From the NCBI GenBank assembly GCA_963818965.1, contig CAWFUG010000008.1, positions 32,001-96,000 on the forward strand: a DNA stretch of 64,000 nt. The letters run 5' to 3'. Position 1 is the stretch's first letter, and every line of letters begins with the position of its first letter. The notes beneath the pieces are model-generated. The model made no database searches, was not told the DNA's origin, and was given only the letters and a program-made list of their open reading frames with translations. Made by a program: the position numbers and the translations under genes. The DNA is from an uncultured Verrucomicrobiae bacterium (GTDB taxonomy: Bacteria > Chlamydiota > Chlamydiia > Chlamydiales > Rhabdochlamydiaceae). Positions 57,768-60,925 of the stretch are shown here, in pieces.

Positions 57768-58565
57768 ATGTCGCTAGCGCTTCTCTTGGCTCTTTATGTA
57801 CTCGTTGGCGGTGCTGCAGGCATCGTGGGTGGATTGTTAGGCCTCGGCGGCGGGGTCGTCACGGTGCCGTGCCTTTTGCTCATTTTTCGGCATCTCGATT
57901 TTCCTCAAGATCACGTGATGCTGATGGCCATCGTCACCTCCTTAGCTGCGATGGTCTTCAATACGATAGGAGCGACGTGGGCCCACAATAAAAGGGGCAA
58001 TGTCGTCTGGCCGGTTGTCAAGAAGATGTTCCCTGGCTTTTTAGTGGGCTCGGTTCTCGGCGCTTCGATCGCGACATTTCTTCCAGAACGAGCCCTTGAG
58101 ATCTTCTTTGGGATTTTTCTCTGTCTTCTCGGGGTCTATTTCTTCTTTAAAAAGACGAAGGTACATGCCCACTACGCACTCCCCTCTGCCCCTGTATTGA
58201 GTCTTTTTAGCTTGGTGATCGGAGCGATCTCTAATATTTTGGGAATTGGAGGGGGTGCCATGACCGTTCCGCTCCTCATGAATTTCAAATTTGAAGAGAA
58301 AAAGGCAATCGGTACTTCCTCTGCGACGACGCTGATCTTGACGACTCTGGGAGCAATTTCTTATCTCATTTTAGACTGGAAACGCGGGATGGGTCCTGAG
58401 ACAGTGGGATTTTTGAATATACCGGCTTTTTTGACAATTGCGATCGTCAGCTTTTTTACGGCACCCCTCGGGGTGAAATTGACCCATATCCTGCCTGTAA
58501 AGGTGGTCAGGCAGATCTTTTCTGTCGTCGTGATCCTCACTGGAATCTCAATGTTTGTGGACTAA
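57768..58565 (+). CDS. TauE/SafE family membrane exporter
   Basis: GGLLGLGGGVVTVP, second GIGGGAMTVP, AIGTS. Confidence 0.9.
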   Translation: MSLALLLALYVLVGGAAGIVGGLLGLGGGVVTVPCLLLIFRHLDFPQDHVMLMAIVTSLAAMVFNTIGATWAHNKRGNVVWPVVKKMFPGFLVGSVLGASIATFLPERALEIFFGIFLCLLGVYFFFKKTKVHAHYALPSAPVLSLFSLVIGAISNILGIGGGAMTVPLLMNFKFEEKKAIGTSSATTLILTTLGAISYLILDWKRGMGPETVGFLNIPAFLTIAIVSFFTAPLGVKLTHILPVKVVRQIFSVVVILTGISMFVD

Positions 58566-59704
58566 TGCCCTGTTGCCTGACGAATTTTCATCACATCCGT
58601 CCCCGTTACGAAATCGATCAAGAAGTACTTCTCGAGTGGATCGCTTCGACTCATGCGCAGGCTGCGGTCTCTGCGGAAAATCGGGATTACGAGGAGGTCT
58701 ACCAGGAGATCCAGGGTAAAATCGCACGGATCTGGGGGGGAAGTCGGGCGATCGAGAAGAAAGGGATTCAGATTCGGGATGTATTAGAAGCGGTGGATCG
58801 AGAGATCTACCCTATAGGAACACATCCTCGTGGTAGGGGGTTTAAAGAGCGGAGTCAATTTTTCGATCGAGAAGCGACAGAAATCCTACAGGCTTTTTAC
58901 CCAGAAGAGGCTCTCCTTCCGGCTCATCTGATTCACGTGACCTGCACGGGCTATGTCGCACCGAGCCCCGCCCAAAGGCTCGTCGCTTTAAGAAACGCAG
59001 GGGAACGGACGACAGTGACTCACGCTTACCATATGGGTTGCTATGGAGCCCTCGCTGCGATCCGCATGGGAGCGGGATTTCTCTTTCTCCCCTTTTCCGA
59101 TCCTTCTGTCGATATCGTCCATACGGAGTTGAGCAGTTTGCATATGCACCCTTTGCGCCACTCGATCGAACAACTGCTCGTTCAGAGCTTATTTGCCGAT
59201 GGCTTTATCAAGTACAGCCTCACCTCTCAAACCGATCAGCCCCATTTCAAGACGTTAGGTCTACTCGAAGAGATCTTGCCTGAATCGAGCGAATCGATGA
59301 CCTGGCGTTGCGAAGACCACGGGCTCAGCATGACCCTTTCAAGAGAGGTCCCCGTTCTGATCAACCGCTCTCTAGATGGCTATCTGACGCGCCTCTCCGC
59401 TCTGGCAAAGGTCGATCTTTCTACGATCAAAGCAAAAGCCCTCTTTGCCGTTCACCCGGGAGGACCGAAGATCTTGGATTATGTCGAAAAGCGCTTCTTC
59501 TTAACACCGGAGCAGATGCGCTATTCTAGAGCGGTGCTGCGCGACTGTGGCAACATGTCCTCAGCGACGCTTCCCCATATTTGGGAGAGAATTTTAAATG
59601 ACCCTGAAGTCCCCGATCAAACCTATGTCTTAAGCCTCGCCTTTGGACCGGGACTGAGCATTTCAGGTGGGGTCTTTCAAAAGTGCACGGGAAAGGTTGT
59701 ATGA
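58565..59704 (+). CDS. Type III polyketide synthase
   Basis: Intact Cys-His-Asn triad (HMGCYG, AVHPGG, GNMSS), VTCTG, LFADG, LAFGPGL. Confidence 0.92.
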   Translation: MPCCLTNFHHIRPRYEIDQEVLLEWIASTHAQAAVSAENRDYEEVYQEIQGKIARIWGGSRAIEKKGIQIRDVLEAVDREIYPIGTHPRGRGFKERSQFFDREATEILQAFYPEEALLPAHLIHVTCTGYVAPSPAQRLVALRNAGERTTVTHAYHMGCYGALAAIRMGAGFLFLPFSDPSVDIVHTELSSLHMHPLRHSIEQLLVQSLFADGFIKYSLTSQTDQPHFKTLGLLEEILPESSESMTWRCEDHGLSMTLSREVPVLINRSLDGYLTRLSALAKVDLSTIKAKALFAVHPGGPKILDYVEKRFFLTPEQMRYSRAVLRDCGNMSSATLPHIWERILNDPEVPDQTYVLSLAFGPGLSISGGVFQKCTGKVV

Positions 59705-60201
59705 TTCTAGCGCTGCTCCTCCCCTTCTTCATCCAAATGAGCGTCATCGGGATCGATGAGTTTTGTTTCCATGTCAAACGGGGCTTGCCCAAATGGGAAT
59801 GTATCGGCCATCCCCTCGATACGCTGACCGTGCTCTTTTGTTTTGGGTTTCTCTTGCTTTTTCCCTACTCCCCTTTTCATCTTAAGATCTACTGCGGCCT
59901 CGCTGTCTTCTCTTCTCTTTTTGTCACTAAAGATGAGTTCATCCACAAGGAGTGCTGTGCGGCGTCAGAACAGTGGTTGCACGCGCTCTTGTTTCTCAAC
60001 CATCCCGTCGTCCTCAGTGCAGCGGGACTCTTGTGGCCTCTCATCGATGGCGTGTCTCTCTTTGCTTGGATGGATCCCTTGCTCAGCTATAAAGCGTTTT
60101 TCCGCCAGTTTCTCATCGTACAAACGCTCTTTACAGCTCTATTTTTCAGTTACCAAGTCCTGTATTGGAATTTTTTAAGGAAACCCCATGTCGCAGATTG
60201 A
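59701..60201 (+). CDS. Hypothetical integral membrane protein with duplicated DE..H / E..H motifs
   Basis: ATGA-coupled to the PKS; DEFCFH...WECIGH and KDEFIH...EQWLH. Confidence 0.75.
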   Translation: MILALLLPFFIQMSVIGIDEFCFHVKRGLPKWECIGHPLDTLTVLFCFGFLLLFPYSPFHLKIYCGLAVFSSLFVTKDEFIHKECCAASEQWLHALLFLNHPVVLSAAGLLWPLIDGVSLFAWMDPLLSYKAFFRQFLIVQTLFTALFFSYQVLYWNFLRKPHVAD

Positions 60202-60925
60202 CAACGCTTTTTACGAGGATTTAAACGAGAAGTGGTATGAGGAAGAGGCGCATCCCGTTGCCCTTTTGCGCGCTGAAAATGCAACGCGCAACCCGTGGAT
60301 TCTCAAGAAAATCGAAGAGCTGCTCGGAACCTCCTGCACCATTTTAGACATCGGCTGTGGTGCGGGTTTTTTAACCAACACCCTCGCAAAAGCAGGACAC
60401 CGCGTGACGGGGATCGATTCTTCAGAGTCGAGTCTAAATATCGCAAAGATCCGCGATGAGACCCACTCGGTCGAGTACCTTCAGAAAGACGCCTTTTCTA
60501 TGGACTATGCGCAAGGGAGTTTTGATGTCATCTGCGCGATGGACTTTTTGGAGCACATCGAAGAGCCGGAGCGGATCGTCCAGATGGTCTCCTCTTTTTT
60601 AAGACCGGGTGGGCTCTTTTTCTTTCACACGTTTAATCGCAATATTTTAAGCTGGCTCATGGTGATCAAAGCCGTCGAGTGGCTCGTTCCCAATACTCCC
60701 AAAAATATGCATGTCTATCCCCTCTTCATTAAACCCAAAGAACTCGAAGGTTGGCTGAAGGCGGAAGGCCTTGAGGTTCAAGAGATCCGAGGGCTCACCC
60801 CTCATTTCTGCTCCACCGGGTTTTTGAGAAGCCTCATCAAGCGGCGGATCCGCCCCGATTTTCGCTTTACCTTTACCCCCTCGTTGCTAATCGGTTACGT
60901 CGGAGTAGCCGTTAAACAAAAATAA
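60188..60925 (+). CDS. UbiG-like SAM-dependent O-methyltransferase
   Basis: W...HPVALLR..N..R, ILDIGCGAGFL, FDVICAMDFLEH, LRPGG.FFFHTFNR, FIKPKEL. Confidence 0.85.
   Translation: MSQIDNAFYEDLNEKWYEEEAHPVALLRAENATRNPWILKKIEELLGTSCTILDIGCGAGFLTNTLAKAGHRVTGIDSSESSLNIAKIRDETHSVEYLQKDAFSMDYAQGSFDVICAMDFLEHIEEPERIVQMVSSFLRPGGLFFFHTFNRNILSWLMVIKAVEWLVPNTPKNMHVYPLFIKPKELEGWLKAEGLEVQEIRGLTPHFCSTGFLRSLIKRRIRPDFRFTFTPSLLIGYVGVAVKQK

Follow-up and report, generated by a model that had tools for sequence, protein, structure and literature searches.

Several bacterial operons encode an alkylresorcinol-type type III polyketide synthase (PKS) together with a methyltransferase and one further tailoring enzyme, namely SrsABC of Streptomyces griseus, PkqABC of Mycobacterium smegmatis and Streptomyces sp. 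MNU77, HidABC of picocyanobacteria, and the mtr-fdo-t3pks operons of planctomycetes. Passages of the respective reports describe the products of these operons as membrane phenolic lipids or as alkyl-benzoquinones that occur beside menaquinone (PMC9927152, PMC10896814, PMC13730376). The SrsB-type methyltransferase is a membrane protein with an ICMT domain, and the SrsC-type third enzyme is a soluble hydroxylase or oxidoreductase dependent on flavin adenine dinucleotide (FAD), as given in a section of PMC13730376. A gene set of this kind is located on a stretch of 64,000 nucleotides (nt; the window in the following) from an uncultured bacterium of the Rhabdochlamydiaceae (assembly GCA_963818965.1, contig CAWFUG010000008.1, positions 32,001 to 96,000 of the forward strand). 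It comprises three genes encoding a type III PKS, a five-helix integral membrane protein, and a UbiG-like methyltransferase, which are referred to as the cassette. The cassette is a real, conserved, and uncharacterized variant of the phenolic-lipid/polyketide-quinone operons, and the pathway encoded by it probably makes a methylated, alkylresorcinol-derived membrane lipid. The more specific assignment, according to which an alkylresorcinol would undergo metal-dependent hydroxylation and O-methylation, is slightly favored.

Compared with SrsABC and PkqABC, the cassette contains enzymes of other types in a different gene order. A soluble UbiG-like enzyme of class I takes the place of the membrane-bound methyltransferase, a five-helix membrane protein of 166 amino acids takes that of the soluble flavoprotein, and the genes follow each other in the order PKS, membrane protein, methyltransferase. 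No FAD oxidoreductase gene was present in the cassette or among the scanned neighboring genes. Among solved structures, the PKS is nearest to two entries (3vs8 and 3vs9) assigned to the ArsB/ArsC system of Azotobacter vinelandii, and the tryptophan typical of resorcinol formation is common to ArsB and the cassette PKS. In contrast to the ars operon, no genes for an ArsA/ArsD-like type I fatty acid synthase are adjacent to the cassette at the inspected loci, which comprised the neighbors of 16 genome loci and the flanks in the window. The ars operon is not known to include a methyltransferase or a membrane-protein partner. The proposed hydroxylation and O-methylation at the membrane face would copy the logic of ubiquinone biosynthesis (UbiG/Coq3 together with UbiI/H/F and Coq7), but here a polyketide would provide the ring, and a fatty acid instead of a polyprenyl chain the tail. 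Coq7, a small di-iron hydroxylase, is associated with the membrane. The cassette membrane protein, in contrast, is integral rather than peripheral and does not match the Coq7 family (PF03232). A first-pass annotation, made by a model from the letters of the window alone, had known of no characterized pathway with this gene set; this holds for the enzymes, which are new, but the underlying logic of PKS, methyltransferase, and hydroxylase is already known.

The PKS gene (58565–59704, 379 amino acids) is, like the other cassette genes, located on the plus strand. The protein is similar to ArsB and ArsC and matches the Pfam families PF02797 (C-domain, 6e-22) and PF08541 (4e-7). Among the solved structures, 98 type III PKSs were matched at E ≤ 1e-5. 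The best relatives were 3vs9 (203 bits) and 3vs8 (197 bits), whereas the next entry reached 94 bits. The PDB table designates both only as "Type III polyketide synthase"; we take 3vs8 to be A. vinelandii ArsC and 3vs9 to be its G284W mutant. The two entries differ at a single aligned position (tryptophan in 3vs9, glycine in 3vs8), where the window PKS carries W247. None of the 15 aligned cassette PKSs deviates at this residue or at the catalytic triad C159, H297, and N330. A tryptophan at position 281 of ArsB, which is a glycine in ArsC, accompanies resorcinol formation and is also found in PkqA of M. smegmatis according to a part of PMC9927152. Judged from these features, the best prediction for the window PKS is an alkylresorcinol synthase.

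The third gene of the cassette (60188–60925, 245 amino acids) encodes a UbiG-like class I O-methyltransferase dependent on S-adenosylmethionine (SAM). It reached 151.2 bits with the UbiG model TIGR01983 (cut-off 102.95), which was matched by all 15 cassette methyltransferases at E ≤ 1e-20; in the control genomes, the cut-off was reached in 2 out of 14. UbiG of Escherichia coli (4kdc, 1.2e-32) is the best solved relative, and the 18 Pfam matches of the protein are confined to class I SAM-methyltransferase models, an ICMT model not being among them. The known substrates of UbiG are ring hydroxyls with a neighboring oxygen function. Because UbiG-type enzymes act on hydroxyls of this kind, an extra hydroxyl on the resorcinol ring is expected, which is the main chemical reason for placing a hydroxylation step in the pathway.

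Between the two genes, and overlapping with both, lies the gene encoding the membrane protein (59701–60201, 166 amino acids), which belongs to no Pfam or NCBIfam family. The stop codon of the PKS gene and the ATG of the membrane protein gene are joined by ATGA at 59701–59704 (overlap of 4 nt), and the ATG of the methyltransferase gene at 60188 is located 14 nt within the membrane protein frame (overlap 60188–60201). An alternative GTG start at 59683 would extend the membrane protein to 172 amino acids. The ATG at 59701 is favored because the homologues typically comprise 166 amino acids.

The arrangement of the three genes is conserved. The order PKS, membrane protein, methyltransferase was found at 14 of 16 scanned genome loci, which originated from Chlamydiota, four Bdellovibrionales, one Nitrosovibrio, and one metagenome-assembled genome (MAG) of the Myxococcota. 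At the remaining two loci (L024 and L027), the contig ends fall where the missing gene would be. A metagenome scan seeded with a fused homologue (see below) yielded 80 further loci, 15 of them with membrane protein and methyltransferase in one frame, 48 with separate genes, and 17 with the methyltransferase only. A PKS gene was situated directly upstream in all 15 fused loci and in each of the 35 separate pairs with upstream DNA of 150 nt or more. Since the same order recurs across phyla, the arrangement is far beyond chance. A fourth partner conserved outside Chlamydiota (fatty acyl-AMP ligase, acyl carrier protein, FAD monooxygenase, reductase, or transporter) was not found among the scanned neighbors. 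Literature searches for the gene set or the membrane protein family returned genome-mining mentions only and no description; in the parts concerned, chlamydial surveys give type III PKS clusters only as an antiSMASH category (PMC9666466, PMC13229535).

Two peculiarities of single loci were noticed during the scan. In one chlamydial MAG (L020:3833-4992), the cassette PKS is encoded in two overlapping frames (3833–4309 and 4291–4992), which suggests a frameshift, arisen either in a pseudogene or from an assembly error. An open reading frame (ORF) of 913 amino acids following the PKS gene in L028 was rejected as a spurious ORF of high GC content; it has no Pfam match and overlaps the real frames of membrane protein and methyltransferase.

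Membrane protein and methyltransferase also occur as natural fusions. Eight full-length representatives (402–420 amino acids) and a truncated one were retrieved from several sources in addition to the 15 metagenome loci mentioned above, and one exact fused sequence was present on six contigs. The fusions keep every invariant residue of the membrane protein. In a rapidly built maximum-likelihood tree of 90 methyltransferases, the fusion state must have changed at least three times to agree with the well-supported branches; the tree has SH-aLRT as its only support measure, a midpoint root, and several long branches. The methyltransferase follows the fifth helix after a linker, in agreement with a cytoplasmic C-terminus of the membrane protein. 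The repeated fusion is strong evidence that both proteins act together at the membrane. A predicted complex of the two separate proteins scored 0.00 against a mark of 0.32, a value obtained without controls and used neither for nor against an interaction.

In the window genome, a fourth gene is translationally coupled upstream of the PKS gene. It encodes a membrane transporter of the TauE/SafE family (57768–58565, plus strand, 265 amino acids) and matches PF01925 over the full length (6.3e-52; residues 11–262 on profile positions 2–237 of 237). The tauE stop codon and the PKS start codon are joined by TAATG at 58563–58567 and overlap by 1 nt. A Shine–Dalgarno-like sequence (AGGAGGG) precedes the tauE ATG by 5 nt, and a terminator-like hairpin on the plus strand (57685–57711, 12 pairs followed by a T run; detected by a consensus scan only) is located between an upstream 218-amino-acid ORF and tauE. 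The hairpin likely forms the upstream boundary of the transcription unit. Among the chlamydia-like loci with upstream DNA, tauE precedes the PKS gene in five out of nine (L013, L015, L016, L018, and L024) in addition to the window, and it was found upstream in none of the 80 metagenome loci. Because tauE is limited to some chlamydiae, the three genes are regarded as the conserved unit and tauE as a lineage-specific addition. The first-pass annotation had described an operon of four same-strand ORFs overlapping at 58565, 59701–59704, and 60188–60201, with an intact PKS triad. The overlaps were read directly at the junctions, the triad is complete, and the conservation of the trio across genomes, which had been named as a check, was found and extends over several phyla. 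The operon as a set of four, however, is seen in some chlamydiae only.

The membrane protein has 1311 homologues at E ≤ 1e-3, corresponding to 283 representatives at 50% identity, and no Pfam domain was detected among the 120 matches listed. One homologue (P0091) is labeled "cytochrome bd-type quinol oxidase subunit 2" by one source. This label is unsupported by the searches conducted here and looks like an annotation error. In an alignment of 93 diverse family members, four columns are invariant (K77, D78, E90, and H94) and 18 are nearly invariant (D19, E20, H24, R27, L29, W32, E33, H37, P38, D40, S71, E79, H82, C86, F98, H101, P102, and Q152). The AlphaFold2 model (predicted local distance difference test score, pLDDT, 97; predicted template modeling score, pTM, 0.90) contains helices at residues 2–27, 31–53, 58–85, 88–115, and 122–159. 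In this model, the pairs E20/H24, E33/H37, E79/H82, and E90/H94 are placed on helices 1 to 4, respectively, 3 to 8 residues from the helix ends on the same side. Lysine and arginine are unevenly distributed, with a mean of 3.1 residues in the loop between helices 1 and 2 and 2.1 in the C-terminal tail, compared to 0.4 and 0.6 in the loops between helices 2 and 3 and helices 4 and 5. From this distribution, loops 1–2 and 3–4, the C-terminus, and the Glu/His cluster are therefore assigned to the cytoplasmic side. When the two helical hairpins were aligned with each other by hhalign, the motifs coincided, but the match was weak (P 0.0011, probability 21%). The pattern of glutamate and histidine residues in the model resembles that expected if a four-helix bundle held a binuclear metal site, and we infer a putative site of this type.

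The following sequence of reactions is proposed. The ArsB-like PKS would extend a fatty-acyl starter with malonyl units, and aldol ring closure would release a 5-alkylresorcinol, a step that is well supported by the similarity and the residues described above. The membrane protein would bind one or two metal ions, most likely as a di-iron center, via its four Glu-x(2,3)-His motifs and hydroxylate or oxidize the membrane-embedded ring at the cytoplasmic face, giving rise to a hydroxyquinol or a catechol-type intermediate; both the metal binding and the hydroxylase role are conjectural. At the same face, the UbiG-like methyltransferase, in some bacteria tethered by a flexible linker, would O-methylate a ring hydroxyl. 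For this last step, the family assignment is a direct result of the searches, and the substrate is presumed. The product would be a methoxy-alkyl-hydroquinone or -benzoquinone, or a methoxylated alkylresorcinol, which stays in the membrane and serves as an accessory lipid or as a second redox carrier beside menaquinone; it would be neither ubiquinone nor the sole quinone of the cell.

The arguments for and against a ring oxygenase are nearly in balance in the case of the membrane protein, and a number of observations weigh against this function. The motifs are spaced as E-x3-H three times and E-x2-H once, which is not the classical E...ExxH di-iron pattern. Pfam searches over the 93 family members gave nothing consistent and no COQ7 (PF03232) match, a profile search of the PDB with the membrane protein gave no match at all, and the best E-value of a Foldseek search against the PDB was 1.7. 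The wide VIA-align comparison reached a best Z of 9.1 with bestrophin, which is under the meaningful level for helical bundles, and searches of the ESM Atlas retrieved only the protein's own family; the fold matches as a whole were confined to generic helical bundles. A gene for an electron donor was not conserved near the cassette in the neighbor scan. The AlphaFold2 model of a natural fusion shows confident domains, but its pTM is 0.65, the linker (residues 157–165) is disordered, and no fixed interface is seen. In the metagenome loci L056 and L062, the methyltransferase gene directly follows the PKS gene and the membrane protein gene is missing, and a small clade of related methyltransferases is devoid of either partner, even at L050, L052, and L096 with their 1.7–3 kb of upstream DNA. 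From these cases, the methyltransferase is apparently able to work without the membrane protein. Finally, SrsB methylates before SrsC hydroxylates, and methylation may likewise precede hydroxylation here. Several of these points would be accommodated by an unlikely alternative, in which the membrane protein has no redox function and assists the methyltransferase as an anchor or a substrate-presenting subunit, possibly with a structural metal or a charge cluster. It would keep the soluble UbiG-like enzyme at the bilayer and supply it with the head group of the alkylresorcinol, and the product would be a mono- or di-O-methyl alkylresorcinol. The repeated fusion via a flexible linker, the variants with PKS and methyltransferase only, and the failure to find an oxygenase match or a conserved reductase or ferredoxin gene nearby are all in line with such a role. 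However, a pure anchor needs no set of about 14 nearly invariant Glu, Asp, His, Lys, and Arg residues at one face, maintained from Chlamydiota to Myxococcota, and a plain resorcinol would not offer the neighboring oxygen function beside which UbiG-type enzymes act. Moreover, UbiG of E. coli binds to membranes by itself.

The same invariant acidic and histidine cluster at the cytoplasmic interface would also suit a metalloenzyme for a different step, such as the decarboxylation of an alkylresorcylic acid, the oxidation of a hydroquinone in the manner of the alternative oxidase (AOX) or the plastid terminal oxidase (PTOX), or the hydrolysis or transfer of a head group. Manganese- or zinc-dependent resorcylate decarboxylases as well as di-iron quinol oxidases exist. 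This explanation is quite unlikely, since no similarity to such families was found and a fusion with a biosynthetic methyltransferase is easier to reconcile with a step of a pathway than with respiratory oxidation. The tryptophan-bearing ArsB-type PKSs, moreover, themselves decarboxylate while the ring is closed, according to a passage of PMC9927152. Metal-dependent hydroxylation of the ring is retained as the preferred function of the membrane protein. The first-pass annotation had expected a hydroxylated and O-methylated aromatic lipid, for which the alkylresorcinol-type PKS and the UbiG-like methyltransferase speak; the hydroxylation is presumptive, and L056 and L062 manage without the membrane gene. 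In L062 (1813–5392), genes for a PlsC/DAGAT-like acyltransferase and an alpha/beta hydrolase follow downstream of the methyltransferase gene, and the product of this variant may be an acylated phenolic lipid. The idea that a known hydroxylase displaces the membrane protein in the PKS and methyltransferase variants was discarded, as these two genes were found at L062 instead. A further-reaching proposal, put forward tentatively and with considerable doubt, is that the membrane protein is the first representative of a new class of oxygenases, integral to the membrane and with a binuclear metal site, which are composed of two hairpins each with a DE-x(2,3)-H and an E-x3-H motif. Together with the ArsB-like PKS and a recruited UbiG, it would make a non-isoprenoid methoxy-alkyl-benzoquinone used as a second quinone or as a stage-specific lipid in about one-third of the sampled chlamydial genomes and in predatory and developmental bacteria (Bdellovibrionota and Myxococcota). 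With the same reservation, such a quinone would be a counterpart, made by unrelated enzymes, of the polyketide quinones that actinobacteria form specifically in spores or under hypoxia.

The quinone genes of the host were analyzed in the whole assembly, which comprises 2.24 Mb on 12 contigs (GC content about 47.5%) and is 87.9% complete. Genes for nucleotide transporters (TLC) were detected in three full-length copies, along with one further partial match, compared to none in the 14 control genomes, and the closest named cassette loci belong to Rhabdochlamydiaceae and other chlamydial MAGs; for these reasons, it is fair to regard the host as an intracellular bacterium. The assembly contains only two UbiA-family genes, encoding MenA and the heme O synthase CyoE. 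The former is part of the operon menG/ubiE-menF-menD-menH-menB-menA-menE (G000:C8:288000-300000, L011), and the latter adjoins the genes for CyoABC (G000:C11:124000-135000, L012). CyoB scored 1039.6 bits, just above the equivalog cut-off of 1020.35. A 4-hydroxybenzoate prenyltransferase of the UbiA type was not seen in this assembly, UbiD and COQ7 gave no match, and no flavin hydroxylase of the UbiH/F/I group scored above the cut-off. Because the assembly is incomplete, the ubi genes are considered not found, their absence being unproven. The window methyltransferase is the sole UbiG-family match above the cut-off, and the window PKS is the sole real type III PKS of the genome. With no ubiquinone pathway found and a complete men operon, the methyltransferase appears to stand outside any ubiquinone biosynthesis. 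The first-pass annotation had noted the lack of other ubi genes in the window and supposed an intracellular host. The former now extends to the assembly, the latter agrees with the TLC genes and the nearest loci, and the search for ubi and men genes advised there places the methyltransferase apart from ubiquinone synthesis, in a genome with a complete men operon.

The presence of CyoABC and CyoE, with CyoB above the cut-off, in a genome in which no ubiquinone pathway was found raises the possibility that the cassette supplies a high-potential respiratory quinone as a ubiquinone substitute for the Cyo oxidase in a phylum in which menaquinone would otherwise be the only quinone, the more so as polyketide quinones carry electrons in mycobacteria and Streptomyces according to a section of PMC9927152. 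The distribution of both gene sets makes this improbable. CyoB-like proteins are encoded in 275 of 401 sampled genomes of the phylum, including the cassette-poor families f6 (CyoB in 45 of 46 genomes, cassette in 2 of 46) and f9 (29 of 35 and 3 of 35, respectively). In the family of the window genome, CyoB was matched in 57 of 65 cassette-positive and in 15 of 24 cassette-negative genomes, leaving eight cassette-positive genomes without a CyoB match, and the cassette is also found in Nitrosovibrio. Given the CyoB-like genes in 275 genomes and the menaquinone-only pathway of the window genome, the Cyo oxidase presumably uses menaquinol in this phylum. The replacement of menaquinone by the cassette product was considered as well and rejected, as MenA is encoded in 112 of the 124 cassette-positive genomes and two MqnA/MqnD-family genes were present in all 5 tested of the other 12. 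The counts relating CyoB and MenA to the cassette were each obtained by reading two tables together. The suggestion of a non-isoprenoid redox quinone or envelope lipid made in the first-pass annotation is qualified by the fact that polyketide quinones of this kind and their operons are already characterized (SrsABC, PkqABC, HidABC). A link to a quinol oxidase was not obtained, and menaquinone genes accompany the cassette in all genomes compared for both.

What remains for the product is the role of an accessory lipid, which, by analogy, could be either a second, condition-specific electron carrier or a membrane-modifying phenolic lipid. Electrons are carried by polyketide quinones in the biofilms of mycobacteria and the spores of Streptomyces (passages of PMC9927152), and phenolic lipids modify membranes in S. 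griseus and planctomycetes (parts of PMC10896814 and PMC13730376). In general, phenolic lipids and polyketide quinones alter membrane properties, and dormant or hypoxic stages of actinobacteria use them for electron transport. The developmental cycle of chlamydiae has two stages, and the lipids specific to either stage are poorly known. The chlamydial, bdellovibrionotal, and myxococcotal hosts of the cassette share developmental or biphasic life cycles, which is no more than suggestive.

Within the phylum, 124 of 400 sampled genomes, representing 61 of 212 genera, matched the membrane protein family. These matches cluster in the family of the window genome (65 of 89 genomes) and in two further families (35 of 69 and 10 of 23); none came from the 29 genomes of f4, a family with genomes of 1.0–1.2 Mb. 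In G355, the only other sampled genome of the window genus (89% complete, 220 contigs), the membrane protein family was unmatched. The occurrence of the cassette in 124 of 400 genomes points to a lipid that is hardly covered by published surveys. Should the membrane protein family, which has more than 1300 members and no name, turn out to be enzymatic, it would represent small membrane metalloenzymes of a new type. In addition, the results illustrate that a gene with a curated "UbiG" call may belong to a pathway other than ubiquinone biosynthesis, which matters for the automated deduction of the quinone content from genomes.

A search of sequencing runs for the cassette matched only two metagenome DNA runs (word share 0.10 and 0.02), and no RNA run was listed. 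The 218-amino-acid ORF upstream of the hairpin (56988–57644, plus strand) has no family match and overlaps an antisense ORF of 232 amino acids, which is probably spurious. A counterpart with 54% identity occupies positions 1–474 of L013, right at the border of this Rhabdochlamydiaceae locus and approximately 2.5 kb upstream of the tauE gene of this locus. The cassette is flanked by genes for large paralogous proteins at 53733–56738 (minus strand, 1001 amino acids) and 61003–63267 (plus strand, 754 amino acids), which are 38% identical over 725 residues (E 3e-141). A third large paralogue starts at 63271 on the plus strand and runs off the end of the window (63271–63999). All three lack a Pfam or NCBIfam match. 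The paralogues, possibly members of a gene family that has expanded in chlamydiae, have a GC content of 0.40–0.43, compared to about 0.50 for the cassette and 0.475 for the genome.

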